Source: Planctomycetota bacterium
GTDB taxonomy: Bacteria; Planctomycetota; UBA1135; UBA2386
Direction: 5' to 3'
DNA: 64,000 nt
NCBI GenBank assembly: GCA_965223545.1
Contig: OZ245006.1
Span: forward strand, 6,592,001 to 6,656,000
Shown here in pieces: positions 41,579 to 60,596 of the stretch. Made by a program: the position numbers and the translations under genes. Positions within the stretch are counted from its first letter, which is position 1. Each line of letters begins with the position of its first letter. Below the pieces are notes generated by a model, which had not been told where the DNA came from, searched no databases, and was given only the letters and a program-made list of their open reading frames with translations.

Positions 41579-41777
41579 CTCAGCGCGGCCGGGGCCGCAA
41601 CCAAACACGGATGCCGCTCTTGCCGGAGCGGGTTGGAAGGCCGGACACATCCGCCGCCGCGCTGAGCCAGGAGGCACTGTCTCTCCGAGCCTCCGGCGCG
41701 GCGGCGTTGTCGCCATGGCAGCGACGTCGCCTCGAAAATGTTGTCGAAGCTCGAAGATTCGAGGCGCCGGAGGCTCA
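41579..41777 (-). mobile_element. TGAG-bounded two-hairpin element, copy A (in frame within a CDS)
   Basis: Homologous to 53346-53547 and 60396-60596; TGAG direct repeats 195 bp apart. Confidence 0.85.
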
Positions 41778-42297
41778 CCGCGTCACCGGGTGTGCCGCAG
41801 CCACTCAGTCGTGCGGTCCAGGCGCTCGCGTTGTGTCCCACCCCAGGCTCGTGCTGGATCAGGTCCTCGGCGACGAAGTCTGCGATGCGGTCCAGAGCCC
41901 GGCCCACGAGTACCTCGGCGGCGAACTCGGCGACGACGGCCTTGTTTCGGTCCGTGCTCTCCAGATCGAGGGTCTGGGTTGGCCCGTCCGCCTGCGATGC
42001 GTCCTCCCACGGAGCGATGACGTCCCAGTGTTCGACGATGAGGTCGTTCTCGTCGGTGTCGAACAAGTCGGTGGTCAGCCACCGCGCTTGACCCTGATTC
42101 AGGATTTGGCCGACGTGGCAGAACACGTACCGGCCATCCTCGATGGCGCGGATGACTCGAATGTCCCGGTGGGGGGTGCGCTGCACGAACGGCTCGAAGA
42201 ACGCGACGAAGCCTTCGACGCCATCGGCGACTCCGGTCGAGTGCTGCGTGTAGCGGGCACCGGTGTACTTCGTGACGGCCTCGCGAACGTTGCCGTC

Positions 42298-43543
42298 AAA
42301 ACTGCAGCCCTTCCGTGGGCCTGGCTAGCTGAGAGACGCTGACCGAGACGTAACCGGAGCCCTCTTCCGAGTCACTGGAAGTGACGCAGGGCCAACTGCG
42401 CAACGGTGCCCTTTTGGTCCCCCCCGCGTTGTGTCTCGGAGGTCGCCGATGTTCGTTCCCCCGCGTTGCCCCAACTCAGCTTGCCCGCACAACCGCAGCC
42501 CGCGGCCCGGCTTCTTCGTACGCCGTGGCTACTACTACCCCAAGTGCCGCGCCCAAGGCGTGCCGCGCTTTCGCTGCCGCCATTGCCGGCAGGGCTTCTC
42601 GCGGCAGACGTTCCGCATGGATTACCGCGACCACAAGCCCGACCGCAACGCCTGGATCGTCATGTTGCTCTGCTCTGGCCTGGGCCTGCGACAGACCGCA
42701 CGCCTCACCGGGCTCACGGCGCGCAACACCGAGATGAAGTTCCGCAAGATCGGTCGCCACGTCCGCCGCCTGAACAACAACTTACGGGGTGACCTGCCGG
42801 TCGGCTCGAGCTTGCAGTTCGACGAACTCGAGAGCTACGAGGGCCGCCGCAACACGCGGCCCCTGACGCTGCCTGTCTTGATCGAGCGCGGGAGCCGCTT
42901 CATCCTCGCAGCGCGGTCGGCCCCGATCCGCCCCGGTGGCCCCAAACCGGCTGCGCGCCGGCGAGCGATAGAGGCCGACGCGCGGCGGTTTGGCCGGCGG
43001 CCGTCGCGGTCGCGCGCGGCAACGCGCAATGCGCTGTGCCGGGGCGCGCGCGCTTGCACTCGGTTGACCACCGTGTTGCTCGAAACGGACGAGAAAACGA
43101 CCTACTCAGGACTCGCGAGGGGCATTTTCGGCGCGCGGCTCGAGCACCGGCGAACACCAAGCACGCTGCCGCGCGAGACCTGGAATCCGCTGTTCGCGAT
43201 CAACCATACCGAGGCAATGGCGCGCGACCTCAACGGTCGTCTGCGGCGCGAGTCCTGGCTGGTCAGCAAGAAGCGCTGTTTCCTCAACCTGCAGCTGCAC
43301 ATCTACACCGCGTACCGCAACTTCACGCGACCGCGCTTCAACTTCGACCGAGACACGCCGGCGATGCTGGTTGGCTGGCTGCCCCAGAAGTTGCGGCTGA
43401 ACCAGGTGCTATCCTGGCGCCAGGACTGGGGCACGCGCAGCGGCCATCCGCTGGATCGAAACGCAAAACCGATCGAGAACTTCCTGAAGAGCTCTGCCTG
43501 ACTTTCTTGCGGCCGTGCCGGACCACGGAAGGGCTGCAGTTCG
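42298..43543 (+). mobile_element. IS1-family-like insertion sequence, 1246 bp
   Basis: 19-bp perfect IR AACTGCAGCCCTTCCGTGG (42300-42318, 43523-43541); 9-bp TSD GTTGCCGTC (42289-42297, 43544-43552). Confidence 0.93.
42449..43501 (+). CDS. IS1-like transposase (Zn ribbon, HTH and DDE in one ORF)
   Basis: GGAGG RBS; CPNSAC...RFRCRHC, GLRQTARLTG HTH, QFDE, ETDE. Confidence 0.85.
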   Translation: MFVPPRCPNSACPHNRSPRPGFFVRRGYYYPKCRAQGVPRFRCRHCRQGFSRQTFRMDYRDHKPDRNAWIVMLLCSGLGLRQTARLTGLTARNTEMKFRKIGRHVRRLNNNLRGDLPVGSSLQFDELESYEGRRNTRPLTLPVLIERGSRFILAARSAPIRPGGPKPAARRRAIEADARRFGRRPSRSRAATRNALCRGARACTRLTTVLLETDEKTTYSGLARGIFGARLEHRRTPSTLPRETWNPLFAINHTEAMARDLNGRLRRESWLVSKKRCFLNLQLHIYTAYRNFTRPRFNFDRDTPAMLVGWLPQKLRLNQVLSWRQDWGTRSGHPLDRNAKPIENFLKSSA

Positions 43544-43729
43544 GTTGCCGTCGCGGATTCCCGACATGTAGAGAGCAATCGCGTGATCGAGCTTGCGGGT
43601 CACAGCGTTCTCCAACGGGCTTCGGGTGAGGGGAGGCGGTGGGCGAGATCCGCGCTGGATTCGCAATAGACAGGGAGCCCGAAGTGCGTGCATAATACAC
43701 GGAGTTGGCTCCCGTGACCCAGGCGGCGT

Positions 43730-44179
43730 ATGACGGTGCGGATCGACCCGAGAGCATCACCGGGATTTCTTGTGGGGCGCGTCGCCCACGAGCTGAAGCT
43801 CAAGGTTCAGGCATTCCTCGATGCCGATGGCATTGCGCAGTCGGCCGAAGAGATCAGTATCCTGACCGTGCTGGCGCACTTGCAGCGACCGCATCGGATG
43901 AGGCCGCTTGGGCGTCTGCTCGGCAGAGATCCGACCACCGTCAGTCGTCAAGTGGCGAGCCTCGAGCGAGCGGGTCTGGTCCGGCGCTCGTCGTCCCCTG
44001 GCGATCGTCGAGCCGTCCAGGTTGACTTGACGCGCCGTGGTGCACTGTTGGTCGAGCGCACGATGCCCCGGACTCTGGCGCTCCGACGCCAGGCCTTACA
44101 GGGCCTCGCGAACGAGGACCGCGAGACACTCGTCAGATCCCTGCAACGCATGTTGCACAACCTTCGCGCGCAGGAGTGA
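43730..44179 (+). CDS. MarR family regulator
   Basis: DPTTVSRQVASLERAGLVRR...DRRAVQVDLTRRG; divergent from the SnoaL gene. Confidence 0.92.
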   Translation: MTVRIDPRASPGFLVGRVAHELKLKVQAFLDADGIAQSAEEISILTVLAHLQRPHRMRPLGRLLGRDPTTVSRQVASLERAGLVRRSSSPGDRRAVQVDLTRRGALLVERTMPRTLALRRQALQGLANEDRETLVRSLQRMLHNLRAQE

Positions 44180-44508
44180 CTCGAGTGTCAACGCTGAAGA
44201 TCTTCGTCGCGGTAGCCTTCTTCGCAGCGGGTGGAGCCAAGCTGGCGACCGCGAAGCCGCTCCTCGACCAATTCCGCGAGTTCGGCCTTCCGCGTGTGGC
44301 GATGTATGTGGTCGGTGCGCTGGAGATCGCCGGCGCCATCGGCTTGTTCGTCGAGGGGGTCGCTCCGTGGGCAGCGCTTGGGCTGACGGCTTTGATGGTG
44401 GGAGCCGTTGCCAACCATCTCAAGGCGAAGCACGCGTTCGGCAAGTGCGCGCCTTCGGCCGTGCTCGCGGTGCTGACGGCTGTCCTGGTTCTGATGCTCT
44501 GGGAGTGA
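44176..44508 (+). CDS. DoxX family membrane protein
   Basis: FFAAGGAKL, VGALEIAGAIGL, MVGAVANH. Confidence 0.85.
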   Translation: MTRVSTLKIFVAVAFFAAGGAKLATAKPLLDQFREFGLPRVAMYVVGALEIAGAIGLFVEGVAPWAALGLTALMVGAVANHLKAKHAFGKCAPSAVLAVLTAVLVLMLWE

Positions 44509-44566
44509 CCGCCGAGCGTACCCGTCGGGGAGCGCGAGAGCGGCAGGCTGCGTCGGCGCACATGGC

Positions 44567-45055
44567 CTATCCACGAGCCAGCAAGCGCAGGCGGCGCAAG
44601 TGCTCGGCCCAGGTCTCGCCGAGGCTCCGCAGGAAGGGCGTGACGTCGGCGCCGTGGCGCACCGGATGGTCGGGGCGCAAGCTGGCCCAGCCGCGGTGCT
44701 CGACGGTGACCTTGGTCGCCTCGGCAGCTGCATCGGTCGGGTGGAAGGTGACGTCGACCACCGTTTCCTCGTCTTCGGCGAAGTTCGGTCCCCGCCAGCT
44801 GAAGGTCAGTCGCTCACCCGGCACCCACACGCGGATCGTGCCGACCACGTAGAGCTCGGGCGTCTGGCCGTCGGCGTAGGCCTCGACGAGTCGGCCGCCC
44901 ACGCCTGGCTCGAACCGCAGCCGTCCATCGCGGCCGGGGCTGAACTGGTAGGCAGGGCCGCGCTTCCACCACAGTCCGATCTCTTGGGTGAACAGATCGA
45001 ACGCGGCCGGCGGCGCGAGGGGTACGGTGGTCGAAACGCGCGCGAAGTCGCTCAC
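44567..45055 (-). CDS. SRPBCC/AHSA1-like protein
   Basis: AFDLFTQEIGLWW, EPGVGGRLVE, VWVPGERLTFSW, TKVTVEHRGW. Confidence 0.85.
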   Translation of the reverse strand: MSDFARVSTTVPLAPPAAFDLFTQEIGLWWKRGPAYQFSPGRDGRLRFEPGVGGRLVEAYADGQTPELYVVGTIRVWVPGERLTFSWRGPNFAEDEETVVDVTFHPTDAAAEATKVTVEHRGWASLRPDHPVRHGADVTPFLRSLGETWAEHLRRLRLLARG

Positions 45056-45402
45056 TTTCGTTGCCGGCGTGCATGCGCCGCGAATGCGTTCAGCTGGTCG
45101 CTCCAGAACGCTTCGACTTGGTCGAGCCAGGCGCGCAGGGCGACGAATGGTTCGCGTCGTAACCGGAACACGCGCACGCGGGCGTCGTCCGCGATGCGGT
45201 CGGCGGAGGCGACTCCAGCTGCGCACAGCACCTTGAGGTGGCGGCTGATCGCGGCCGGCGGCTTGCCGAGCAGGTCTGCCAGCTCGCCGGCGCGGAGGGG
45301 GCGCCGGCGAAGGTGTTGGATCAGTGCCCGGCGCGTCGGATCGCCCAACACGGTGAACAGGTCGTGGACTTGGTCCCGGTCTCGCGAGCGCAGTCGCGTC
45401 AT
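45052..45402 (-). CDS. ArsR/SmtB family regulator
   Basis: LGDPTRRALI, AISRHLKVL, FWSDQL. Confidence 0.9.
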   Translation of the reverse strand: MTRLRSRDRDQVHDLFTVLGDPTRRALIQHLRRRPLRAGELADLLGKPPAAISRHLKVLCAAGVASADRIADDARVRVFRLRREPFVALRAWLDQVEAFWSDQLNAFAAHARRQRK

Positions 45403-45836
45403 GTGCTGCGGTGCTCGGCGGCGCGGCGGCGCATCTCTTCGGGGTCTACGTCTTCGATGTGGGTGGCGACCCACCAGAAGTTGCCTTGTCGATCGCTTAC
45501 CCCAGCGCTGCGGTCGCCGTAGAACTGGTCGGTAGGCGGGTAGATGGTCTGTGCGCCCTGCGCCAGCGCGCGTTCGTAGACCGCGTCGACGTCTTCGACG
45601 TACACGTACAGCGAGCTGGGGATCGGCTTCCACTGATCGCGGGCCTGGCCCAGCATCACCACCGAGTCGCCGATGCGGATCTCGGCGTGCGCGATCTCGC
45701 CACCCGGGAGCTCGATCAGCTCGTGCTCCACCGCGCCGAAGACGTCGCGGGTGAAGGCGATGGTGGCCCGGATGTCGGGGACGATCACGTACGGCGTGAC
45801 GGTGTTGTAGCCGTCGGGGATGGGGGAGACGGTCAT
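45399..45836 (-). CDS. VOC/glyoxalase (PhnB-like) protein
   Basis: PDGYNTVTPY, HAEIRIGDSVVM, DQFYGDRSAGVSD. Confidence 0.9.
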   Translation of the reverse strand: MTVSPIPDGYNTVTPYVIVPDIRATIAFTRDVFGAVEHELIELPGGEIAHAEIRIGDSVVMLGQARDQWKPIPSSLYVYVEDVDAVYERALAQGAQTIYPPTDQFYGDRSAGVSDRQGNFWWVATHIEDVDPEEMRRRAAEHRST

Positions 45837-45856
45837 GGGAGCGGAGGGTAAACTAA

Positions 45857-45872
45857 TTGACAATATTGTCAA
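45857..45872. promoter_or_regulatory. Perfect 16-bp palindrome, likely ArsR operator
   Basis: TTGACAATATTGTCAA, 20 nt upstream of the VOC-ArsR-SRPBCC operon. Confidence 0.7.
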
Positions 45873-45945
45873 ATATTGATGCGGAAAGAAAATTGAGCGG
45901 ATCAGTCCGTGGTTGGCGTCGCCGGCGCCGTTTAGGCTGCGCGGC

Positions 45946-47325
45946 ATGCATGCGTCGGCGCTGGCACCCCTGCTGTGGGTGGTGGTCTCGGTCTCGTTGT
46001 GCGGCGCCGCGCCGTGCGCCCAGCATCCGCGGGTGTTGTTCCTGACGCACTCGGCGGGATTCGAGCACGCCGTGGTCAAGCGCGTGCAGAAGGGCCGCGC
46101 CGCGGTGGCCGAGAAGGCGTTGAGCGACGCAGCCCGCGGCCAATTCGAGGTGGTCGCGAGCCAGGACTGCGGTGTGATCAACGCCCGGGATCTCGCGACC
46201 TTCGACGCGGTGGTGTTCTACACCACCGGCGAGCTGCCGATCGACGAGGTGGGTCGGGCGGCCCTGCTCGACTACGTGCGTGGCGGGGGCGCGTTCGTCG
46301 GTGTGCACTCCGCGACCGACACGTTCTACCAGTGGCCGGAGTACGGTGCGCTGCTGGGTGCCTACTTCGACGGCCACCCGTGGAACCAGGCGGTCGCCGT
46401 GCAGGTCGAGCACCCGCGCCATCCCGCCACCGCGCACTTGGGCGCGACCTGGCGGGTCGCCGACGAGATCTACCAGTTCAAGCAGTGGACCCGCGCCGAC
46501 CACACGGTCTTGCTCAGCCTCGCGCCGGAGGGGGCGGACTTGTCGCGGGGCAAGCGCGCCGACCGCGACTACCCGCTGGCGTGGTGTCACGACGTCGGCG
46601 AGGGGCGTGTGTTCTACACCGCGCTCGGCCACCGTCTCGCGCTGTGGGGGGACCGCGTGTTCTTGCATCACTTGCTCGGCGGCATTCGCTGGGCGATTGG
46701 CGACGAACGCGTGTTGGGCCGGGCTCCAGAGGGAGCCACCGTGCTGCTCGGTGCCGCGCTCCAGCCGAACGCCTGGCAACATCCCGACGGCGAGCCAGTG
46801 CGCTGGCGAGCCGTCGGAGACGGTGACGACCGCGGCCTCGAGGTCGTGCCGAAGGCCGGCAGCATCGTCACCAGGCAGGCCTTTGGCGACTTCCGGCTGC
46901 ACGTCGAGTTCCGCGTGCCGCGAGAATCCGCGGCGGACCGCGGCCAGGCCCGCGGCAACAGCGGCGTCTACCTGCAGCGCCGCTACGAGGTGCAGATCCT
47001 CGACTCGCACGGCCAAGAGCCGCGGGCCGATGGCTGCGGCGCGCTCTACCGCCAACGCGCGCCGGCGCGCAATGCGAGCCGCCCGCCCGAGGAGTGGCAG
47101 AGCTACGACATTTGGTTTTCGGCCGCGCGCTTCGACGAGGCCGGCGAGAAGCTGGAGGACGCGCGCATCACCGTGCTGCACAACGGTTGGCTGATCCACG
47201 ACGACGTTGCGCTACCCGACAAAACCGGCGCTGGCCGGTCGGAGGGCCCTGAGCCCGGCCCGATCCTCCTGCAGGACCACGGCGACCCGGTGCGGTTCCG
47301 CAACGTGTGGATCGAGCCGATGTAG
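45946..47325 (+). CDS. ThuA-like domain plus DUF1080 fusion, secreted
   Basis: GFEH, FVGVHSATD, FDGHPW, GRVFYTALGH; FGDFRLHVEF, GNSGVY, YEVQILD, LQDHG...FRNVWI. Confidence 0.88.
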   Translation: MHASALAPLLWVVVSVSLCGAAPCAQHPRVLFLTHSAGFEHAVVKRVQKGRAAVAEKALSDAARGQFEVVASQDCGVINARDLATFDAVVFYTTGELPIDEVGRAALLDYVRGGGAFVGVHSATDTFYQWPEYGALLGAYFDGHPWNQAVAVQVEHPRHPATAHLGATWRVADEIYQFKQWTRADHTVLLSLAPEGADLSRGKRADRDYPLAWCHDVGEGRVFYTALGHRLALWGDRVFLHHLLGGIRWAIGDERVLGRAPEGATVLLGAALQPNAWQHPDGEPVRWRAVGDGDDRGLEVVPKAGSIVTRQAFGDFRLHVEFRVPRESAADRGQARGNSGVYLQRRYEVQILDSHGQEPRADGCGALYRQRAPARNASRPPEEWQSYDIWFSAARFDEAGEKLEDARITVLHNGWLIHDDVALPDKTGAGRSEGPEPGPILLQDHGDPVRFRNVWIEPM

Positions 47326-47343
47326 GCGAGCGGCGCCGTCGTT

Positions 47344-48846
47344 TCAGCGCCCGGCCTGGGCGGGCGCGCGCAGCTCGAGGCAATGCAGCTCCTCCTGCGA
47401 GCGCATCAGCAAGAGGCCGCCGGCCAACGCCATCGGCGCCCACATCCGGTAGTCACGGCGCAGGTTCTCGGTGCCGAACACGTTGGCCTCCGCCAGCTGG
47501 TGGTAGCGCTCGGGGTCGGGCGCGACCGAGCGGAGCACCCCGCTGTGGCCGTCCTGGATGTAGAGCACACCGCCGGCCGCCAGCGCATTGCCGCGGCCGA
47601 AGAACGGTTCCGCCCCCGTGCGCCACCGCTCGTTGCCGGCGAGGTCCAGGCACAACAGCCCGCCCTCGCCGTGTCGCGAGCGGTGGGTGTTGAAGTTCTC
47701 GTTGACCAGCACGTAGAGGTGGTCGTCGAGCAGGATCGGCGGGTGGATGTGCGAGCCGCGCGAGTTGCGGAACAGCTCGCGCACCGCGAACGCGTCGTCC
47801 TCGCCGCGCGTCACCTCGATCATCAGTGAGCCCGAGCGGTAGCCGCCGGTGAGGAACACGCGGGTCTCGTCGATCTGCAGCGGCGGGCAGACCGGCTGCC
47901 AGCAGAAGTACAGATCCGTGCTCCACAGCGGCGCGCCGCTGCGCACGTCGAAGCTCGCGACCGAGCCGACGCCGTCCTTGAAGCGGCTGCTGGTGAGGCC
48001 TCCGCCCGACGAGCGGCCGCTGCGTGCGCCCTCCTCGCGCGCGCGCTCCCAGCGGCGCCGGCGCTCGGCGAGCTCTTCCGCGGTCGGTGCGCTCCGGTTC
48101 TCGCCACCGCGGGAGAACATGTTCGGCCCGCCCACCGGAACACCCTTGGCCGACAAGAACACGATCTGCGCCGTGCCACCGAGGTCCATGAGCGTCGGCG
48201 TCGAGTGCGAGGTGCCGAGGTCGCCGGTGCGCCACACCTCCTCGCCGGTGTGCCGGTTCAGGGCGACCAAGCCCGCATCCTTCGCCATCGGTGTGACGAT
48301 CAGCAGGTCCTCGAACAGCACGGGTGACGCGACGAAGCCGTAGCCCGGGGTGACGCCGTCGAAGTCGTCGACCAAGTGCACGCTCCACACCGCTTCGCGG
48401 CTCTCGCGGTCGATGCAGTGCACGTGCCCGAACGCCCCGGTGACGTAGACGTGCCCTTCCGTGACCGCGGGCACGGAGCGCGAGCCCATGTAATCGAAGC
48501 GGCCGGGTGCCTCGTGCCGCCATCGCCAGAGCTCTGCTCCGCTCTCCAGGTCGAGCACGCGCAGCAGGTCGGCCTCCGCCTGGATGCGGTCGAACACGAA
48601 CACCTCGCCGTCGCGCACCGCGGCGCCGCCGTAGCCGGGCCCGAGCTCCGCCGTCCACAGGGTGGCGGGGCCGGCGTCGGGCCATCGCGCGGCGAGGCCG
48701 GTCTCGGTCGAAGTGCTGTTTCCGGCGGGACCGAGGTAGCACGGCCAGTCCGCCGCCGCGTCCTGGGCCAGGCCGGATGCGGCGCCGAGACCGCCGAAGA
48801 GGAACGCCGCGGCCAGCGGCCGCAGGGGGGCGGTCGGAGCGTGCAT
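47344..48846 (-). CDS. PQQ-binding-like (BamB-like) beta-propeller protein
   Basis: DWPCYLGP, repeated LDxxSGxELW blades, WAPMALAGG. Confidence 0.88.
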   Translation of the reverse strand: MHAPTAPLRPLAAAFLFGGLGAASGLAQDAAADWPCYLGPAGNSTSTETGLAARWPDAGPATLWTAELGPGYGGAAVRDGEVFVFDRIQAEADLLRVLDLESGAELWRWRHEAPGRFDYMGSRSVPAVTEGHVYVTGAFGHVHCIDRESREAVWSVHLVDDFDGVTPGYGFVASPVLFEDLLIVTPMAKDAGLVALNRHTGEEVWRTGDLGTSHSTPTLMDLGGTAQIVFLSAKGVPVGGPNMFSRGGENRSAPTAEELAERRRRWERAREEGARSGRSSGGGLTSSRFKDGVGSVASFDVRSGAPLWSTDLYFCWQPVCPPLQIDETRVFLTGGYRSGSLMIEVTRGEDDAFAVRELFRNSRGSHIHPPILLDDHLYVLVNENFNTHRSRHGEGGLLCLDLAGNERWRTGAEPFFGRGNALAAGGVLYIQDGHSGVLRSVAPDPERYHQLAEANVFGTENLRRDYRMWAPMALAGGLLLMRSQEELHCLELRAPAQAGR

Positions 48847-48887
48847 GGGCTTGGAGCTTACGCCCGAAGCGTCTCCCGTGCCGCGCC

Positions 48888-49463
48888 TCAGATCCCTTTG
48901 AACTCCTCGAAGCTCTGTCCGCTGGCCATGAACACCAGCGATGCAGCCAGCAGCCCCAACCCCACGACTGCGGCCAGCCCGACCAAGCCCCAGCCGAGCC
49001 ACGCTCGACGGTGGCTTTGGTATGCGATGTTGATCAGTCCCTGGATCGCCAGCGGCCAGTTGTAGGGGCCGAGTGCGAGCACCGTGAGAACGGTCCACCC
49101 GTTGAGGGCTGCCGCCGTGCGTCGGGACTGCGGCGAGCACGACGACGCGCGCAGGGTGTGGGAGACGAGCCACCACGAGGGAGCTGCCAGCGCGATTCCG
49201 ATGCCGTAGAGCGCGAGTAGAGAGCCATCTCGCAGAGTGCCCAGAGCCAGCTTCGTGGTGACCGCAAGCAAGTGACCGAAGGCCATGGTGCCGATGGTGA
49301 CGCCGTAGAACAGGTTCATGGCGGCGAGCAATCGCTGCCGGAGCGGGACCCCGGAGCGCTGGCGGTACCACAGAGAAAGCGCCGCCGCGACCAGGGCGGC
49401 GCCGAGGGATACCGGCATCCACCGGCTCTCGTCGACAATCCACTGCAGCACTCGATCGATCAC
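48888..49463 (-). CDS. Hypothetical multi-pass membrane protein
   Basis: About 5-6 hydrophobic segments; GTGA overlap with the TetR gene. Confidence 0.75.
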   Translation of the reverse strand: MIDRVLQWIVDESRWMPVSLGAALVAAALSLWYRQRSGVPLRQRLLAAMNLFYGVTIGTMAFGHLLAVTTKLALGTLRDGSLLALYGIGIALAAPSWWLVSHTLRASSCSPQSRRTAAALNGWTVLTVLALGPYNWPLAIQGLINIAYQSHRRAWLGWGLVGLAAVVGLGLLAASLVFMASGQSFEEFKGI

Positions 49464-50128
49464 GTTGGCCTCCGGGAATCAGGGTCCATGGTTGGCAAGG
49501 CTGCGTCCGCGCCGCCGGAGTGCGAGACTTCGAGCAGCGAGCGCTTCGTCAAGCGGATCAGGTGCGCCGTCGCTCCGGCTGCGCTGTGGTCCAGCAACAG
49601 CTGATCGAAGGTCACGAAGCCGGTCACGAGGTGCAGAGTCGTGGCGGCCTCGCGAGCGCTGACCGCCGGCGGCACCACGCCGGCGCGTTTGGCGCGGCGC
49701 GCCAAGCGCGTCAGCCGACCGCGCCGGTCCGCTTCGTAGCCGGCGACGAGCTCGCCGACCTCCTGGTCCAGCTGTGCCAAGGCCAGGGTCCGACGGATCG
49801 CGCCCGGCATCACTGCCCAAGCGCGGCAGCTCTCGCGGACGACCGCGAGGACCGCTGCCGCCGGGTCGGGCAAGTCCAGCGCCCGCAGCACCGAGTCGAA
49901 GCCGATGCGGCGTCCCTGGTCGACGAACACGCTCGACAACAGCTCCCGGCGCGAGCCCAGGGCGTTGTAGATCGTGGCGCGGCTGACGCCGGCTTCGGCC
50001 GCGACCTCCTGCACGGTCAGGCGGCCGCCGTCCGGGCGGTCGAGCAGGTCGTGGGCGGCCTGCACGATCCGCGTGCGCGTCGCCGCGGCGGACTGCTGCC
50101 GCGCCCGCATGACGTAGCTGCGAGCCAT
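49460..50128 (-). CDS. TetR/AcrR family regulator
   Basis: TRTRIVQAA...LTVQEVAAEAGVSRATIY. Confidence 0.92.
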   Translation of the reverse strand: MARSYVMRARQQSAAATRTRIVQAAHDLLDRPDGGRLTVQEVAAEAGVSRATIYNALGSRRELLSSVFVDQGRRIGFDSVLRALDLPDPAAAVLAVVRESCRAWAVMPGAIRRTLALAQLDQEVGELVAGYEADRRGRLTRLARRAKRAGVVPPAVSAREAATTLHLVTGFVTFDQLLLDHSAAGATAHLIRLTKRSLLEVSHSGGADAALPTMDPDSRRPT

Positions 50129-50135
50129 CGGCGTC

Positions 50136-50164
50136 AGTATCATATTGGATGGACATGGTGTCAA
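50136..50164 (-). promoter_or_regulatory. Sigma70 promoter with overlapping operator candidate for TetR
   Basis: TTGACA-N17-GATACT on the minus strand; imperfect palindrome TGGACA-TGG-TGTCAA at 50150-50164. Confidence 0.7.
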
Positions 50165-50290
50165 GTCAATGGCGAGGGAACCCAGCTCGCTGCCCGAGCG
50201 CCAAGAAACGTGCTCCGCGCCGCGGGAATCCGTACGCGGATCCGCGAGCGAGCTGCGTTCCGGTCGGTAGGCCCAGCAGGAGTCGATGCC

Positions 50291-51388: not shown

Positions 51389-51529
51389 GCCGCTGCGGAA
51401 CAGAGAGGCACCGCGGCCGGCATGTGCTCGATCGGTGCGAAATGTCCGGAACACGCAGCGGCGCTGACGAGTATTTGGCGCGCCGCGTTCCCCCCGCTGG
51501 CGCTCTCGTGCTTGGATAGCACTCGACCA

Positions 51530-52579: not shown

Positions 52580-52637
52580 CGCCGCCCGGCGTGTGCTTGC
52601 CCCGGCGGCAGTTCCGGCCCACACTCTGCCGCTGCCG

Positions 52638-53348
52638 ATGGCTGCCAAGCACTTTGCCGTTCTGCCGCGGACGATGGGTCGTTGCGGCTCGACGTGGCTC
52701 TGCGATCTGATCGACTCGCATCCCGCCGTCACCTGCCTCGGTGAGGTGTTCAACCCCGGCGAGGCCGCATACTACGGCGCGTTCGCCGATGCCGCCGGCC
52801 CACAGCGCGATGCCGCGGCGCTGTTCGCGGCGATCGAGGCGGCGCGGCCCGGCGCGGCCGCCTACGGCTTCAAGGCGTTCCGCGAGGACCTCGAGACCGA
52901 CGCGCTGCGGCGGATCCTGGCGCATCTGGACGCGGTGGTGTTCATCGAGCGCAAGAACCTCACCCGGGCACTGGTCTCCGAGTTGCACGCCCGCGCGACC
53001 AAGCGCTGGCACTTGCGCGCCGGCGCCGAGCTGCCCGAGGGCTTCTTCGAGCAGCGCATCGAGGTCGACGTCGAGCAGGCCCGCAACCGCCTGCGCAACG
53101 CCGTCGAGACCGGCAGGATCCTCGCCGAGATGGTGGACTCCGCCGGGGTCGCGGCCGTGCGCATCGAATACGAGCAGCTGGTCGCGGCGACCCAAGGCAC
53201 GATGGACGGCGTGTTCGGCGTGCTCGGCGTCGCGCCGCACGCGGTGACGTCGCGGTTTCGCAAGATGCACCAGGGCGTCGACTTCGTCGCCAACCTGGAT
53301 GCCGTCAACGCTGCTTTGGGCGACGAGTTTGGCCAGCTCGAACCCTGA
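52638..53348 (+). CDS. Sulfotransferase-like (Stf0-type) protein
   Basis: GRCGSTWL...SHP PAPS-binding loop, GFK, ERKNLTRALVS, IEYEQL. Confidence 0.75.
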   Translation: MAAKHFAVLPRTMGRCGSTWLCDLIDSHPAVTCLGEVFNPGEAAYYGAFADAAGPQRDAAALFAAIEAARPGAAAYGFKAFREDLETDALRRILAHLDAVVFIERKNLTRALVSELHARATKRWHLRAGAELPEGFFEQRIEVDVEQARNRLRNAVETGRILAEMVDSAGVAAVRIEYEQLVAATQGTMDGVFGVLGVAPHAVTSRFRKMHQGVDFVANLDAVNAALGDEFGQLEP

Positions 53349-53547
53349 GCCTCCGGCGCCTCGAATCTTCGAGCGGCGACAACATTTTCGAGGCAACGCC
53401 GCTGCCATGGCAAAGTCGCCGCCGCGCCGGAGGCTCGGAGAGACAGTGCCTCCTGGCTCAGCGCGGCTGCCGGCGACCGCGGGACCCGCGACCGACGCTC
53501 GGGTCGCGGAATGCTCCGTGTTTGGTTGCGGCCGTGGCCGCGCTGAG
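53346..53547 (+). mobile_element. TGAG-bounded two-hairpin element, copy B (starts at a stop codon)
   Basis: TGAG repeats 198 bp apart; left half near-identical to copy A, right half closest to copy C. Confidence 0.85.
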
Positions 53548-53558
53548 CGCCCCGCGGC

Positions 53559-55013
53559 TCAGGCGAGGATCGGCCGGATCAACGAGCCGTGGACGTCCGT
53601 GAGCCGGTAGTGCCGGCCCTGGTAGCGAAACGTCAGCCGCTCGTGGTCGATGCCGAGCAGGTGCAACACCGTGGCGTGCAGATCGTGCACGTGGACCGGG
53701 TCCTCGGCGACGTTGTAGCCCAGGGTGTCGGTCTTGCCGTAGGTGATGCCCGGCTGGATGCCGCCGCCTGCCATCCACATGGTGAAGCAGCGCGGGTGGT
53801 GGTCGCGGCCGTAGGAGCGGGGATCGTACTTGCCCTGGCAGTACGCGGTGCGGCCGAACTCACCACCCCAGATCACCAGGGTGTCGTCGAGCAAACCGCG
53901 CCGCTCGAGGTCGGCGATCAGCGCCGCCTGCGGCTGGTCGGTCATCCGGCACTGCTCGCGGATCTCGCGCGGCAGGTTGCCGTGCGCGTCCCAGCCGCGG
54001 TGGTAGAGCTGGATGAAGCGCACGTCGCGCTCGGCCAGGCGGCGCGCCAGCAGGCAATTGGCGGCGAAGCTGCCCGGCTTGTGGACATCGGGACCGTACA
54101 GCGCCAGCGTCTCGTCGCTCTCGTCGCGCAGGTCGGTCAGCTCGGGCACCGACATCTGCATGCGGAAGGCCATCTCCGCCTGGCTGATCCGCGCCAAGAC
54201 CTCGGTGTCGCCGGTGCGCTCGAAGGTGCGTTGGTCGAGCGTGGCGATGGCGTCGAGTAGGCGCCGGCGGTCCGCCCGTCGGACGCCTCTCGGGTTGTCG
54301 AGGAACAGCACCGCGTTGTCGCCCGAACGGAAGCGGACGCCTTGGTGCTCGCTCGGCAGAAAGCCGCTCCCCCAAAGGCGTGCCGACAGCGCCTGCATGT
54401 TGCCGAACCCCTGGCTGATGAGGACGACGAACGCGGGCAGGTCGCGGTTGGCGGCGCCGAGCCCGTAGCTGAGCCAGGCGCCCATCGACGGCCGTCCCGG
54501 GATCTGGCTGCCGGTCTGCATGAACGTCACGCCGGGCTCGTGGTTGATGGCCTCGGTGTGTACCGAGTGCAGAAAGCACAGCTTGTCGGCGATCCGGCCG
54601 GTGTAGGGGTAGAGCTCGCTGACCCAGGCGCCGTCTTGCTGGTTGGGGTGACGGGTGAACTCGAACATCGAGGGCACCAGCGGCAGGCTGTCTTGACCGC
54701 TGGTCATGCCGGTGATGCGCTGGTTGTTGTAGACCTCCGGCATCTTGCGCAGGTCTTCGCCGGCGCGGTCGCGCAGCGCGGGTTTGTAGTCGAACAAGTC
54801 GAGCTGGGAGGGGCCGCCCATCATGTGCAGATAGATGACCCGGCGCGCGCGGGGGGCGTGGTGGGGTGGCGCCTCAGTGCCGCGCGCATGCGCGGGGGCG
54901 CCGCCCAGCTGGGACAGCGCGCCGCAGCCCAGTGCGGTCGACAGGCTGCCGCCGGCGCGGCGGAAGAACTGGCGGCGGTTGAGATTGCTCAGGTAGCGTT
55001 CGAGGGGGTCCAT
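53559..55013 (-). CDS. DUF1501 family protein with Tat-like signal
   Basis: NRRQFF, GGPSQLDLFDYKP, GWDAH, WGGEFGRT, GRDHHP. Confidence 0.93.
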   Translation of the reverse strand: MDPLERYLSNLNRRQFFRRAGGSLSTALGCGALSQLGGAPAHARGTEAPPHHAPRARRVIYLHMMGGPSQLDLFDYKPALRDRAGEDLRKMPEVYNNQRITGMTSGQDSLPLVPSMFEFTRHPNQQDGAWVSELYPYTGRIADKLCFLHSVHTEAINHEPGVTFMQTGSQIPGRPSMGAWLSYGLGAANRDLPAFVVLISQGFGNMQALSARLWGSGFLPSEHQGVRFRSGDNAVLFLDNPRGVRRADRRRLLDAIATLDQRTFERTGDTEVLARISQAEMAFRMQMSVPELTDLRDESDETLALYGPDVHKPGSFAANCLLARRLAERDVRFIQLYHRGWDAHGNLPREIREQCRMTDQPQAALIADLERRGLLDDTLVIWGGEFGRTAYCQGKYDPRSYGRDHHPRCFTMWMAGGGIQPGITYGKTDTLGYNVAEDPVHVHDLHATVLHLLGIDHERLTFRYQGRHYRLTDVHGSLIRPILA

Positions 55014-55030
55014 GGGCGTCCGGTGTGCGG

Positions 55031-58000
55031 TCAGCTGCGCACGAGAGTGTCGTCGAGGCTGAGAATGGCGCTGGCGATCAGCATCCACGGCGCCAGCTCG
55101 GTGGCGGGAACAGCGTCGGTACGCGGTGCCTCGCCGGTGGCCAGCACCGCCTCCGCATCCTCGGGCGCCGCCGCGTAGCGCGTGCGCAGCGCGGCCAGCG
55201 CGCTGGTCAGCGCCTGCAGGTCGGCCACCGCCGGGGTTCGCCCCGTGCAGCGCCGGTACATCGCCCGAAGGCGGTCGCCGTCGCCGCGGTGCTCGGCCAG
55301 CGTGCGTTGTGCCAGCACGCGCGCCGCCTCGGTGAACTGCTCGTCGTTCCACAGCACGAGGGACTGCAGCGGCGTGTTCGTCGTCGCGCGCTGCACGACG
55401 CAGAACTCGCGCGTCGGCGCGTCGAAGATCGCCATCTGCGGGTTGGGCGAGGTCCGCTTCCAGAAGGTGTAGAGGCTGCGGCGGTGCAGGGCCGTGCCGT
55501 GGTCGCGCTCGAACACGCGGGTGTTCGAGCTGGCGCCGATCGACACCTCCTTCCACAGCCCCTCGGGCTGGTACGGCTTGACGCTGGGGCCGCCGATCAG
55601 AGGTTGCAGGAGACCTGCGGCAAACAGAGCCTGATCGCGGATCAGCTCGCCCGCGAGCCGCCGGCGCGGAAAGTAGGCCAGCCAGCGGTTGTCCGGGTCG
55701 ATGGCGCGCGCTTCGGTGCGCACGCGGGAGGACTGCTTGTAGGTCGCCGAGTTCACCATGCGCCGCAGCATCGCCTTTTGGTCCCAGCCGGATTCGACGA
55801 AGCGGTGCGCGAGCCAGTCGAGCAGGGCGAGATGGCTGGGCCAGTCGCTCTGCATGCCGAAGTTCTCGCTGGTCTTGACGATGCCCGTGCCGAACAGCAG
55901 CTGCCACAACCGGTTGACACGGACCCGGGCGGTGAGTGGGTGATCGGCGCGCGTCAGCCAACGGGCAAAGCCGAGGCGGTTCTTCGGTGCCGCCGCCGGC
56001 AGAGCGGCGCCCAGCACCGAGGGCGGCCGGCGCTCGACGGGGCGGTTCTCGTCGGCGAGGTCGTAGCGTCCGCGGGTCAGCACGTGCGCCGGTCGCGGCG
56101 TGTCGAGCTCGGCCATCACCAGCACCGGCACCGCCTCCGCCTCGATGGCGGCCAGCGCTTGCTCGGCCTCTCGGCGCCGATCGTCGAGGGCGGCGTAGGT
56201 CGGCGACCGGTGTCGCGCCCAGGCGCGCGCGCAGCGTTCGCCCAGCGCGGCGTCGCGCCGGTCCGGCGCCAGCAGGGTGGCCGGTGCCAGCGCCAGCGGC
56301 GCCGCATCGGCCTGCTCGATCCGGCTGGTGAAGCCGCCCGGTCCGCCGTTGTTGACCACCTTGCAGACCAGCGTGCTCTCGCCGGCCGGCAGCGCGAGCT
56401 CGACTCGATCTTGGTCCGGGGCCGCGCCGCGCATGACCTTGTTTTCGAAGACGCGCGCACCGTTGAGGTAGACCGCCACGGCGTCGTCACTGCCGAGCGA
56501 CAGGGTGACTGTCCGCGGCGTCGGCGCGCGCAGCGTGCGACCGATGTAGAACGCCGCCCGCTCGCCGCGGAGGCGGTGCACGGGACCGTCTTCGAAGTCG
56601 GGCTTGTGCGTCCAGCGGCGCTCGCCGAAGCGGGCCTCGCGGTCGATGTGCGTCACCTCTTGTGGACCGTGCTCGGTGCGCCACACGGTCTCGAAGTCCT
56701 CGCCGGAGAATGGACCGGCGAGCCACCAGTCACTGGCCACCAGGGGGAACTCCGCCGACGGGTCGCGCACGGCGCGGCCCAAGGTGACCCGCGGCCGCCC
56801 GATGATGTGCTGTCCGTACTGGCTGTGATAGACGAGCTCGACGATGACGCGCGTGCCCCCTTCGAAGCCGAACGGCGTGCGCGCGCGGAGGATGGCGGTG
56901 CGGGTCTCGATGTGCTCGTGGCCGGCCAGCGCCCAGCCGTGCGCGTCGGGATCGAGCGCATTGTGCACGTCGAAGTCACCGTTGGCCTGTTCGTGGTCGG
57001 CCCACGCCCAGGCGAACTCGATCTCCTGCCGGCGGTCGGGATCGTCGCGGCCCACCGCGGTGGCGCGGACGTGCGACAGCACGGCGTTGCCGTGGCTGGC
57101 GAGGCTGAGGCTGCCCTTGGGCAGGGCGGGGTCGGTCAGCGCTTCCAGGCACAGCAAGTCGAGGCCGACCGCGTCGGTGTCGAGCACCAACGTGTGGGTG
57201 TCCTTGGCCGGCGGATCGTCCGCCGCGGCGCGCACCGAGCCGTCGTCGAGCACCGTCATGCGGCGACCGGCCGCCGACTTGGCCTCGATCACCGGAGCGT
57301 GCACCCAGGAGACGCCGAGCCGCTCGCGCAGCGCGCGCCCGGCGGCGACGTGCTCGGCCTCGACGGTGGGCGCCGCGGCCGCCAGCTCCGCCAGCCGAGC
57401 CTCGAGTGCCTCGCTTGCCGCAGCTGCACGCTCCTCGAGCCCCGGCGGCCGGTAGTCGAGCCGGGCCGGGTAGGCACGGGCCTGCTCGAACTCGGCGGGG
57501 TAGACGCCGCGCTCATCCACCGAGTTGAAGAACGCGTACAGCGAGTAGTAGTCCTCTTGGCTGAACGGGTCGTACTTGTGGTCGTGGCAGCGCGCGCAGG
57601 CGACGGTCAACGCCATGAACACCGTGCTCACCGTTTCGATGCGATCGCACACCGCCTCGACGCGGTACTCGGCGTCGAGCGCGCCCCCCTCGTCGTTGAT
57701 GTTGTGCATCCGGCAAAAGCCCGACGCGATGCGCTGCGCGGTGGTCGCGTCCTCGAGTAGATCGCCGGCCAGCTGCTCGGTGGCGAACTGATCGAACGGC
57801 AGATTTTGGTTGAACGCGTCGATGACCCAATCGCGGTACGGCCAGGCGGTGCGCACGTTGTCGTGGTGGAAGCCGTTGGTGTCGGCGTAGCGCGCGCCGT
57901 CGAGCCACTCGTAGGCCATCCGCTCGCCGTAGTGCGGCGACGCCAACAGTCGCTCGACCAGCTGCTCGTAGGCGTCGGCCGCCGGGTCGTCGACGAAGGC

Positions 58001-58579
58001 CTCGATCTCCTCCGGCGTCGGTGGCAGGCCGGTCAGGTCGAGGCTGACGCGCCGGATCAGCGTCTCGCGGTCGGCCTGTGGCGACAGGCCGAGACCGCGG
58101 CGCTCGAGCGCGTCGAGCACGAACCGATCGAGCGCGCTCGGCGCGGCGTCGGGATCAGCGACGCGAGGGGGTGCCGTGTCCACCGGTGGGGTGAACGCCC
58201 AGTGCTCGGCGAACGGCGCACCCTCGTCGATCCAGCGGGCCAACAGGGCGCGCTCTTCGGCCGACAGCGACAGCCCCGAGCTCGGCGGCGGCATGCGCTG
58301 GCGAGGATCATCGCTGCGGATGCGCCGCACCAGCGCGGAGCGATGCGCGGCGCCCGGCACGACGGCGGCGCCACCTTCGCGGGCGGCGAGCATCCCCTCG
58401 CGGGTGTCCAGGCGGAGATCGGCTTTGCGCGCGCGCGCGTCGAAGCCGTGGCAGGTGAAGCAACGGTCGGCGAGCAGTGGCCGGATGTCGCGGTTGAAGT
58501 CGACCGGCGCTTGGGCGGCGGTGGGCGCGGCGGCGAGGCCGGCGGTGATGGCGGTGACGGCGAGGACGAGGCGGCGCAT
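55031..58579 (-). CDS. Planctomycete cytochrome c plus DUF1549/DUF1553 protein
   Basis: FNRDIRPLLADRCFTCHG, LIRRVSLDLTGLPP, CARCHDHKYDP, RRSLY, TNTPLQSL. Confidence 0.93.
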   Translation of the reverse strand: MRRLVLAVTAITAGLAAAPTAAQAPVDFNRDIRPLLADRCFTCHGFDARARKADLRLDTREGMLAAREGGAAVVPGAAHRSALVRRIRSDDPRQRMPPPSSGLSLSAEERALLARWIDEGAPFAEHWAFTPPVDTAPPRVADPDAAPSALDRFVLDALERRGLGLSPQADRETLIRRVSLDLTGLPPTPEEIEAFVDDPAADAYEQLVERLLASPHYGERMAYEWLDGARYADTNGFHHDNVRTAWPYRDWVIDAFNQNLPFDQFATEQLAGDLLEDATTAQRIASGFCRMHNINDEGGALDAEYRVEAVCDRIETVSTVFMALTVACARCHDHKYDPFSQEDYYSLYAFFNSVDERGVYPAEFEQARAYPARLDYRPPGLEERAAAASEALEARLAELAAAAPTVEAEHVAAGRALRERLGVSWVHAPVIEAKSAAGRRMTVLDDGSVRAAADDPPAKDTHTLVLDTDAVGLDLLCLEALTDPALPKGSLSLASHGNAVLSHVRATAVGRDDPDRRQEIEFAWAWADHEQANGDFDVHNALDPDAHGWALAGHEHIETRTAILRARTPFGFEGGTRVIVELVYHSQYGQHIIGRPRVTLGRAVRDPSAEFPLVASDWWLAGPFSGEDFETVWRTEHGPQEVTHIDREARFGERRWTHKPDFEDGPVHRLRGERAAFYIGRTLRAPTPRTVTLSLGSDDAVAVYLNGARVFENKVMRGAAPDQDRVELALPAGESTLVCKVVNNGGPGGFTSRIEQADAAPLALAPATLLAPDRRDAALGERCARAWARHRSPTYAALDDRRREAEQALAAIEAEAVPVLVMAELDTPRPAHVLTRGRYDLADENRPVERRPPSVLGAALPAAAPKNRLGFARWLTRADHPLTARVRVNRLWQLLFGTGIVKTSENFGMQSDWPSHLALLDWLAHRFVESGWDQKAMLRRMVNSATYKQSSRVRTEARAIDPDNRWLAYFPRRRLAGELIRDQALFAAGLLQPLIGGPSVKPYQPEGLWKEVSIGASSNTRVFERDHGTALHRRSLYTFWKRTSPNPQMAIFDAPTREFCVVQRATTNTPLQSLVLWNDEQFTEAARVLAQRTLAEHRGDGDRLRAMYRRCTGRTPAVADLQALTSALAALRTRYAAAPEDAEAVLATGEAPRTDAVPATELAPWMLIASAILSLDDTLVRS

Positions 58580-58630
58580 GGACGTCGCGCATCATAGCGG
58601 GTCGCCCCGCGCGCGCCGTGACCGGTTCGG

Positions 58631-60400
58631 TCAGCCGTGGGCCAGCATGCGCGCGTAGCACCCATCCGCCCGCGCCAGCTGCTCGTGCGTGCCGCGCTCG
58701 ACGATGCGGCCGTCCTGCATGACGAGAATGCGATCGGCGCGGCGCACCGTCGACAGGCGGTGGGCGACCACCAGCGCGGTGCGGTGCTGCAGGACGCGGC
58801 GCAGTCCTGATTGGATCGTGGCCTCGCTGTCGCTGTCGATGCTGGCGGTGGCCTCGTCGAGGATCAGCAGGTCGGGGTCGTGCACCAGCGCGCGGGCGAA
58901 CGACAGCAGCTGCCGCTGCCCGACGCTGAGAGTGGCGCCGCGCTCCTGCACCGGCGCTCGCAGGCCGCCGGGGATCGCCGCGACGATGTCGTCGGCGCCG
59001 ACCGCCGCCAGCGCCTGCCACGCGCGGTCTTCGTCGATGCTGTCGTCGAACAAGCGCAGATTGTCGAGGATCGTGCCGCTGAAGAGTACGACCTCCTGCG
59101 GCACTACGGCGACGCGCCGCCGCAGGCCGTTGAGATCGAGAGTCGGCAGCGGCGCTCCGTCGAGCAGGACGCGGCCGGCGGTGGGGTCGTCGAGCCGGGA
59201 GGCCAGCGCCAGCACGGTGCTCTTGCCCGCACCGGTCGGGCCGACCAGGGCGACGTTCTCGCCGGGGCGGACCTCGAACGAGACGTCGTGCAGGACGCGG
59301 CGGTCGCTGCCGTAGGCGAACGAGACCGCGTCGAACGTCAGGTGTGCGGCCGCGCGCGGCTGCGCCTTGGGCTCCGCCGGTGGCGCCGGGTGGCGGGGTT
59401 CGTCGAGGATCGCGAACAGGCGCTCGCAACTCGACATCGCGCTCTGCAGCACGTTGTACTTCTCGCCGAGCTCGCGGATCGGCTCGGTGAGCCGGTTGTA
59501 GTACAGCCAGAACTGGACGAATGCGCCGGTGCTGAGCGCGCCGTGCAGGATGTCGTGGGTGCCGATGGCGAGGATCGCCACCTGACCGAGGCGCAGGCTG
59601 CCGTCGACCAGCGCGACGAATAGGGCGAACTGCGCCACCGTGCGCAGCCACGCGTCGCGGGTGGTGTGGTTGTGGGCGGTATAGCGGTCGGCGACGCGCT
59701 GCTCCGCGGTAAACAGCTTGGCCACCCGCACGCCACCGATCGCCTCGGCGGCGTAGCCGTTCTGCGCGCCGAGTGCGTGCCGCACCGCGCGGTAGGTCAG
59801 CCGCACGCCAGCGCGGAAACGCAGGCTGATACCGATCAACAGCGGCGTCAGCAGGACGGTGACCAGCGCCAGCCAAGCGTCGATCCAGAACAGCACGGCG
59901 AGGGTGCCGAAGATCTTCAGCAGGTCGAACAGCGCCTGCAGGACGCCGGTCGAGATCAGCTCGTTGAGGTTCTCGACGTCGGCGGTGACGCGGGTCACCA
60001 GGCGGCCGGCGGCGTGCCGGTCGTGGAAGCGCGGGCTCACCGACAACAGGTGTTCGAACAGCGCGCAGCGCATATCGCGGATGACGCGTTGGCCGGCCTT
60101 GGCGGTGAGCATGGCGTAGCCGAAGCCGAGGGCGACTGCCGCGAGCGTGACGGCTGCGTAGGCCAGCGCCAGAGTGGTCAGGCCCTGCAGCGCGTCGGGC
60201 GCGCCGCCGACCGCGGCGGCGATGGGGCCGTCGATGGCGCGGCGCACCAGGTAGGGGCCGACGACCTCCAGGCCGAACGACACCAGCAGGATCAGCAGGC
60301 TGACGGCGAACGCGCGCCGGTAGGGGCGGACGAACGGCCACAACCGTCGCAGATGACGCAGCTCGAAGGTGCCCTCGTCACTGTCGGGCCGGGTGCTCAT
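58631..60400 (-). CDS. ABC exporter half-transporter (MdlB-like)
   Basis: TMD plus GPTGAGKST, LSVGQRQ, LILDEAT, VAHR. Confidence 0.93.
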   Translation of the reverse strand: MSTRPDSDEGTFELRHLRRLWPFVRPYRRAFAVSLLILLVSFGLEVVGPYLVRRAIDGPIAAAVGGAPDALQGLTTLALAYAAVTLAAVALGFGYAMLTAKAGQRVIRDMRCALFEHLLSVSPRFHDRHAAGRLVTRVTADVENLNELISTGVLQALFDLLKIFGTLAVLFWIDAWLALVTVLLTPLLIGISLRFRAGVRLTYRAVRHALGAQNGYAAEAIGGVRVAKLFTAEQRVADRYTAHNHTTRDAWLRTVAQFALFVALVDGSLRLGQVAILAIGTHDILHGALSTGAFVQFWLYYNRLTEPIRELGEKYNVLQSAMSSCERLFAILDEPRHPAPPAEPKAQPRAAAHLTFDAVSFAYGSDRRVLHDVSFEVRPGENVALVGPTGAGKSTVLALASRLDDPTAGRVLLDGAPLPTLDLNGLRRRVAVVPQEVVLFSGTILDNLRLFDDSIDEDRAWQALAAVGADDIVAAIPGGLRAPVQERGATLSVGQRQLLSFARALVHDPDLLILDEATASIDSDSEATIQSGLRRVLQHRTALVVAHRLSTVRRADRILVMQDGRIVERGTHEQLARADGCYARMLAHG

Positions 60401-60596
60401 CGCGGCCACCGCCGCAAACACGGAGCGATCCGCGACTCGAGCGTTGGTCGCAGATCCCGCGGTCGCCGGCGGCCGCGCTGAGCGCAGACGCCAGTGTTGC
60501 TTTCGAGCCTCCGGGAGTTGCGTTGTCGAATTTCCAGCGGCATCGAGCCTTCGGAAAGGCTGTCGCCGCGCGAAGATCCTCGGCCCCGGATGCTCA
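60396..60596 (-). mobile_element. TGAG-bounded two-hairpin element, copy C (between the ABC genes)
   Basis: Diverged homolog of copies A and B; TGAG repeats 197 bp apart, coinciding with the upstream stop and downstream start. Confidence 0.8.

Follow-up and report, generated by a model that had tools for sequence, protein, structure and literature searches.

A two-hairpin mobile repeat at TGAG sites in a Planctomycetota genome, with a hairpin foot that covaries with the target among its relatives

Three homologous repeats of about 200 nucleotides (nt) lie within 19 kb of a 64,000-nt stretch of a Planctomycetota genome (assembly GCA_965223545.1, contig OZ245006.1, positions 6,592,001 to 6,656,000; hereafter the window). 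They raise the questions of what kind of element this is, how it finds its site and whether it is built to spare the translation of the genes it enters, as a preliminary description of the sequence had proposed. On balance, the repeat is probably a mobile element that consists of two hairpins and carries no gene, related to repetitive extragenic palindromes (REPs) and bacterial interspersed mosaic elements (BIMEs) but long for one of them, which inserts at TGA|G without duplicating its target, is likely guided by the foot of hairpin 1 and likely travels in single-stranded form with the help of an HUH transposase acting in trans and resembling TnpA or the REP-associated tyrosine transposases (RAYTs). 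The three copies, whose coordinates, strands and lengths were correct in the preliminary description, and their principal parts are as follows:

41579..41777, minus strand: copy A, the full element with both TGAG; 199 nt, equal to a 195-nt insertion in frame inside a SnoaL/NTF2 gene
41687..41694, minus strand: foot of hairpin 1 in copy A, the putative guide (GGAGGCTC; the other strand reads GAG 5' of the hairpin), assigned in part from covariation
41657..41666, minus strand: 5' arm of hairpin 2 in copy A (CTCAGCGCGG), pairing with the right end of the element
53346..53547, plus strand: copy B, 202 nt; a sulfotransferase-like gene stops at its left TGA
53429..53436, plus strand: foot of hairpin 1 in copy B
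53457..53466, plus strand: 5' arm of hairpin 2 in copy B
60396..60596, minus strand: copy C, 201 nt, at the ATGA stop/start overlap of two ABC (ATP-binding cassette) transporter genes
60505..60512, minus strand: foot of hairpin 1 in copy C
60473..60482, minus strand: 5' arm of hairpin 2 in copy C

Structure, spread and ends of the repeat

The copies share a mean column identity of 79% with flanks included, and each has TGAG at both ends, copy C being deviant there in that it starts with TGAGCATCC and ends with GCGATGAG. In the fold of copy B, a small linker hairpin lies between two long ones (z=-5.4, none of 200 shuffles being as stable) and copies A and C adopt the same fold, which bears out the two-hairpin layout. 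The empty sites first proposed are likewise sensible: copy A minus one TGAG is the segment, adding 65 codons, that is absent from all six aligned homologues, and copies B and C sit on TGA stop codons. A search of the window against Rfam at the gathering threshold returned no match to the element, a tRNA being the sole match.

To the genome as a whole (8.1 Mb, 70% GC, two contigs) we applied a profile built from 128 blastn copies, which gave 230 matches, or 225 once overlapping antisense self-matches were removed. The family comprises 129 full-length copies at 162 loci with mutually unrelated flanks; TGAG stands at 120 of the 129 left ends and 122 of the 129 right ends, in agreement with the initial view of a non-autonomous mobile element with a TGAG site. 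At 42 of the 162 loci, two to six units are arrayed head to tail, neighbours sharing one TGAG. The element is recently mobile, with a median nearest-neighbour identity of 97% among full-length sequences, 124 of the 129 being distinct. Unit lengths of 195, 198 and 201 nt arise by recombination of left and right halves, and 100 of the 129 lengths are divisible by three; each of the three sense frames is open in 86-100% of copies, and the probability that all three would be so by chance is about 0.1. The centre of the element is the reverse complement of the junction motif, interrupted by a linker of about 20 nt, and compensatory changes occur at 11 of the 28 predicted pairs. The loci show no replichore bias (87 versus 75, p=0.39). 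A longer version with the same ends enclosing a transposase gene, proposed as something to look for, was not found in the genome, where the five pairs of left and right ends within 12 kb of each other enclose other insertion sequences (ISs) or a 425-nt insert. Searches of the open literature retrieved no published description of the family, although REP tables in supplements may list related repeats.

Relatives, located by stepping from genome to genome, occur in at least seven further members of the same taxonomic family (G009, G017, G018, G066, G029, G085 and G087). A right-end pattern has matches in 23 of 91 genomes of that family, seven of them with at least 20 matches (among them G085 with 55 and G087 with 33). 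Matches number 68 in G017, 66 in G018 and 48 in G066, and the relatives' units range from about 141 to 201 nt, including 184, 187 and 188. A sequence-only covariance model missed most divergent relatives. A pattern search of metagenomes gave 63 loci, of which five are full or near-full relatives, while a distant blastn search of a plasmid collection gave no match to the element and a pattern search of viral contigs gave none. Some copies in G029 (L381, L383) hold an extra hairpin-rich segment of about 100 nt nested in hairpin 2.

The ends of the relatives in G017 clarify the nature of the terminal TGAG. There, TGAG occupies 11 of 14 outer left ends, whereas the right ends and array junctions mostly read TAGG or TCGG; because the tetramers at the two ends are unlike, what looks like a direct repeat is one host site plus the element's own end and not a target duplication. 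Thus the lack of terminal inverted repeats noted initially stands, but the simple direct TGAG repeat does not. Miniature inverted-repeat transposable elements of the terminal-inverted-repeat type differ on both counts, as the present ends are not mutually complementary and a target duplication is absent. When interior motifs are used to anchor the source-genome ends, departures from TGAG at positions one to four number 11, 10, 7 and 0 among 103 outer left ends and 2, 1, 4 and 5 among 80 outer right ends, and there are none among 55 inner array junctions. The fourth base, invariant at the left and most variable at the right (Fisher p=0.002), places the crossover at TGA|G, or C|TCA on the other strand; TnpA-REP is described as cutting at C|T (PMC8266576). 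The flanks weakly resemble the junction (C at -3, C at -1, T at +3, C at +4). A rule by which the base at -1 follows the hairpin 2 arm, suggested by CTCAT with ATGAG at four of four G009 loci, was rejected, since metagenome copies with CTCAG carry A, A and C.

Hairpin foot, target site and candidate enzymes

We compared the foot of hairpin 1 with the landing tetramer at the outer left ends among the loci fetched. In G018 both foot variants occur: the foot CTC accompanies TGAG at 22 ends and TGGG at none, the foot CCC accompanies each at 12 (p=8.6e-5). With foot CCC, G066 has TGGG at 14 ends and TGAG at none, its single CTC copy having TGAG; G029 has TGGG at five and TGAG at two; G085 has TGGG at six and no TGAG, one CTC copy (L500, judged by eye) having TGAG; and G087 has TGGG at four, TAGG at two and no TGAG, the foot parser having misread 3 of 11 copies there. 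Foot CTC in G017 goes with TGAG at 11 ends and TGGG at none. In line with a host origin of the TGAG left ends in G018, an open frame rich in GC at third codon positions is closed by 21 of 30 TGAG ends but by 0 of 10 TGGG ends.

Read on the opposite strand, the foot is CGAG, GGAG or GGGG 5' of the hairpin and the site is CT or CC. Because the landing tetramer changes in step with three internal foot letters, these three bases likely choose the target by pairing with the site. The AG and GG feet with their CT and CC sites parallel the guide rule of TnpA-REP in vitro (GTAG with CT, GTGG with CC), where the change from GTAG to GTGG in one system, TnpA-Mb, shifts cleavage from CT to CC (PMC8266576). 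G-T wobble on the opposite strand would fit the G018 pattern, as GGG could read both CC and CT and GAG only CT.

On the opposite strand, the unit extends from a putative cut site, C|TCA, through hairpin 2, linker, foot tetranucleotide (CGAG, or GGAG and GGGG in relatives) and hairpin 1 to a second C|TCA. An enzyme would cut at both C|T sites and release a circle, which would be pasted at a new C|TCA. Because the target would outlive the insertion, later copies could stack head to tail, as in the arrays. The single-strand chemistry, the active strand, the circle and the class of enzyme are parts of this scheme that we infer.

Several observations weigh against this scheme. Decay from outside could imitate part of the junction asymmetry, and the base at -1 varies, being C in 52% in the source genome, A at four of four G009 loci and mixed in metagenome copies. 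In G017 the element's own right end reads C|C on the opposite strand and mismatches its AG foot; folding energy favours neither strand; and a crude count for hairpin 2 on the strand used in the preliminary description, 68 G-T versus 14 A-C pairs, runs counter to the choice of the opposite strand. Related copies are not independent samples in the foot/site statistics, and two enzymes in G018 are possible. Among the best-supported joints in contigs of X1, X2, X5 and X6 none skips the element at copies B and C, and in contigs of runs X1-X4 no such joint was listed for one intragenic copy; nor was a circle seen, assembled contigs losing rare forms and thus being unable to reveal rare empty alleles or circles. 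The enzymes bring further difficulties. The source genome has no Y1 gene flanked by the element (a REPtron), the nearest copy lying 4.8-70 kb from each of its 14 Y1 matches, and every Y1 match scores under the NCBIfam RAYT cut-off. Across the seven element-rich genomes, the two Y1 types are found in four (the 232-aa type) and two (the long RAYT type), against six for IS91-like proteins (PF04986), and G085 and G087 (85% and 88% complete), both element-rich, have no match to PF01797.

The 14 Y1 matches of the source genome are two long RAYT-like genes and 12 intact copies of the 232-aa type. Apart from single adjacent copies, no element sequence was found around the Y1 loci; one source-genome Y1 gene has a reversed element fragment upstream. 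The 232-aa type has its own upstream tandem two-hairpin repeat with the same GCTGAG/CTCAGC axis, and in all 12 G017 cases the tetramer preceding this upstream repeat has G as its last base. Two associations were noticed post hoc: an element copy lies 3 nt ahead of the ATG of the sole Y1 gene found in G018, and another lies just past the stop of a Y1 gene in G017. Among the 91 genomes, the 232-aa type is present in 38, the long RAYT type in 22 and PF04986 in 52. A search of the PDB returned nothing for the 232-aa protein and for the long type only a non-significant match to TnpA-REP (E=0.32). As a single shared enzyme we rejected the 232-aa Y1, the long RAYT-like type and the IS91-like proteins alike, none of which covers all element-rich genomes.

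The 232-aa Y1 HUH family itself (G000:C1:7214121-7214819, L015, and 11 other loci, 94-97% identical, with upstream repeats of about 260-350 nt) has homologues lying head to tail in G017 and resembles a mobile relative of the RAYTs in its behaviour. Of the 14 copies of a group II intron (G000:C1:7636774-7638921 and 13 further loci), most sit in the hairpin repeats upstream of these genes. Beside the long RAYT-like genes lies a separate family of short, GTAC-tagged, REPIN-like repeats (REPINs being paired REPs; G000:C1:6109325-6109402, 5038490-5038570 and 3914571).

Insertion relative to genes and use by other mobile elements

Genes were called with a hexamer model on the contig with 61 clean loci excised (5955 genes, 89% coding), and gene context was counted at these 61; the remaining 101 loci, none with an intact end, were excluded. 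The clean loci fall into 27 at TGA stop codons, 27 intergenic and seven in genes; with the element and one TGAG removed, a predicted gene spans the site at 7 of the 61. Three of the seven intragenic copies keep the frame, one of them in a gene broken by an IS, and four truncate the gene. The element occupies 46 per 1000 TGAG sites between two close gene ends and 17 per 1000 at stop codons; within 60 nt downstream of a gene end the rate is 15 for antisense and 8 for sense orientation, in the rest of the intergenic DNA it is 4 and in gene interiors 0.3. Targeting of stop codons, which these counts suggest when all intergenic sites serve as reference (odds ratio 3.1, p=9e-5), was rejected because the effect is gone against other gene-end sites, whose occupancy is alike (p=0.73). 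TGA is the main stop codon of the genome (4543 of 5955 predicted genes). The stop-codon appearance arises because TGAG contains this codon and because insertions inside genes are likely purged. Relatives landing on TGGG have no link to stop codons, yet spread equally well.

Two claims of the preliminary description are not supported by these data. That copies always point with the gene is true of copies A to C but not genome-wide, gene-end sites being used in either orientation; and sparing of translation is mostly a by-product of where copies survive, not a design, as four of seven intragenic copies truncate and the gene of copy A is already split by an IS. A general restoration of start codons was also considered and rejected, only 2 of 11 loci with A at -1 ending in ATGAG and one of four stop/start overlaps having regained ATG. 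That one is copy C, whose right end GCGATGAG supplies the downstream ATG; the three other overlaps do not regenerate it. In G009 (L010-L013, L093), ATGAG is at the left end at four of four loci, at least three of the four lie at apparent stop/start overlaps, and the element's own ATGAG end preserves both codons. An antisense two-unit array (G000:C1:2181858-2182254) adds 131 codons in frame just past the signal-peptide-like start of an FG-GAP-like protein.

The genes and the unrelated IS around the three window copies are:

41395..42299, minus strand: host gene of copy A, a tandem SnoaL/NTF2 protein whose first ~20 codons are cut off by the IS
42300..43541, plus strand: IS1-like element, unrelated to the repeat, interrupting the host gene of copy A
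52593..53348, plus strand: sulfotransferase-like gene, its TGA stop forming the left junction of copy B
60594..62339, minus strand: ABC transporter gene, its TGA stop forming the left junction of copy C
58631..60400, minus strand: ABC transporter gene beginning at the ATG in the right end of copy C

Because the IS severs its start, the host gene of copy A is likely a pseudogene. The IS1-like element entered about 20 codons past the SnoaL start with an apparent 9-bp target duplication and has about 11 copies in the genome, one of them within a repeat copy (G000:C1:66011-67469). A convergent DUF1501 gene ends 11 nt beyond copy B.

The repeats are themselves used as targets by ISs of the IS110 type, of which the genome has three families. 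A 515-aa IS110 has the same junction motif, in hairpin 2, at each of its 11 copies, ten of them in recognisable element copies, and a second IS110 has four copies, every one of which lies on the CT of the hairpin 1 foot; REPs are known landing pads of IS110 elements (PMC1525189). The third (461-aa frame, 23 Pfam matches) targets the GTAC-tagged REPIN-like family. Two repeats (G000:C1:537270-537479 and 611310-611519), both exact cases, carry an extra ATACC at the insertion point of the 515-aa IS110, which looks like a five-base footprint of imprecise excision via AT microhomology.

Competing explanations and known systems

The same self-guided element might instead be moved by another trans-acting enzyme, for instance an IS91-like Y2 HUH transposase or an unrecognised host enzyme. 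The absence of a detectable Y1 gene from the element-rich G085 and G087 and the PF04986 matches in six of seven element-rich genomes speak for this, but PF04986 is widespread and gave no match in G085, the 11 IS91-like loci scanned have no element sequence nearby, and RAYT genes can disappear while their repeats persist (PMC3733652), so that we regard it as unlikely. Somewhat more doubtful still is the bolder proposal that these are self-addressing miniature elements, naturally retargeted several times between TGAG and TGGG by a one-base hairpin change, which spread in some genomes lacking Y1 and RAYT genes via an undescribed guide-reading single-strand recombinase.

Elements of the IS110 type lack inverted repeats, form tandem copies and have internal sequence that covaries with the target. 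These traits recur here, three IS110 families are at hand and the flanks are weakly like the junction, so that the repeat could be imagined as a non-autonomous IS110 derivative whose hairpins act as bridge-like RNA, recombining via a two-base core. The G017 ends share the last G alone and hence no such core, however, and the core positions vary at the outer ends in the source genome; site specificity is some 4-5 bases, the profile matched only flanks of IS110s, which use the element as target, and no long version encloses a cognate transposase. This origin is very improbable. Intron homing, too, inserts at a single point without duplication and pairs with the flank, as the element appears to do, and group II introns have ends following the rule GUGYG...AY. 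A structured transcript inserted and copied by the reverse transcriptase of the resident 14-copy group II intron would also suit the excess of G-U over A-C pairs on the sense strand of hairpin 2. Against such an RNA route, which we think highly improbable, the 200 nt hold no recognisable ribozyme, Rfam is blank, the ends do not fit the rule and insertion near gene ends is, per site, as common in antisense as in sense orientation. It is scarcely more credible that the repeat has been domesticated, as a structured RNA or a terminator-like element of gene ends, with selection for host function acting on its sense orientation and open frames: the compensatory changes, open frames and lengths divisible by three would agree, but the covariation is equally expected of a DNA substrate, the flanks are unrelated and the copies recent, relatives' units include 184, 187 and 188 nt, and the frame is kept at only 3 of 61 clean loci, one of them in the IS-broken gene. 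No result favours a separate structured RNA family, which had been the other half of the initial proposal.

Of the analogues named at the outset, REPIN/RAYT and IS200/IS605 systems hold up, whereas Rickettsia palindromic elements and an IS110 derivative do not. Like REPs, REPINs and BIMEs with their TnpA-REP (RAYT), the element has a high copy number, lies mainly outside genes and near their ends (54 of 61 clean loci) and forms hairpins in tandem arrays (PMC8266576, PMC3116915, PMC3733652, 10.1101/279083); it shares with REPs, as portrayed in PMC8266576 and PMC1525189, a tetranucleotide foot 5' of the hairpin, the C|T junction, the change of foot from AG to GG with that of the site from CT to CC, and the role of IS110 landing pad. 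Its alternating inverted units with a linker and its 42 multi-unit loci recall BIMEs. It differs in its hairpins of about 90 nt (20-50 nt in REPs), in the foot CGAG/GGAG/GGGG instead of GTAG/GTGG, and in the exact ends and four-base site of its entire two-hairpin unit, with no REPtron found in the source genome. The element thus likely works like a REP/BIME substrate of single-strand, guide-directed transposition, yet falls outside REPs in size and in lacking GTAG.

IS608 cuts 3' of its target tetramer, whereas the crossover of the element appears to lie within it; the element further differs from IS200/IS605 in having no lagging-strand bias and no autonomous IS found with the same ends. With that group and its miniature derivatives, the palindrome-associated transposable elements (PATEs), it shares the lack of inverted repeats and of target duplication and, probably, DNA-DNA guide pairing at a hairpin (PMC8266576). 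The bcr1 repeat of the Bacillus cereus group is described as about 155 nt long with two independent stem-loops bearing compensatory changes, a short direct repeat at both ends and no known enzyme (PMC3184786, PMC6542083); its published description sets it apart by a TTTAT motif and another phylum, and in the present element what resembles a direct repeat is no duplicated target, and an internal foot changes along with the site. Rickettsia palindromic elements resemble it in the occasional in-frame insertion, adding about 65 residues, but nearly half of them are reported in genes (PMC10969869), as opposed to three frame-keeping and four gene-breaking copies at 61 loci here.

How REPs spread is described as remaining to be elucidated (PMC8266576), and has been hard to resolve partly from their fuzzy ends and two-base site. 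In the present family the ends are exact, the site has four bases, empty sites can be reconstructed and a single genome contains natural guide variants; it offers apparent in-genome evidence for a guide rule so far demonstrated in vitro. It also provides a ready substrate for an enzyme search, and it illustrates how site sequence and selection can coincide to make such repeats look as if they targeted stop codons.

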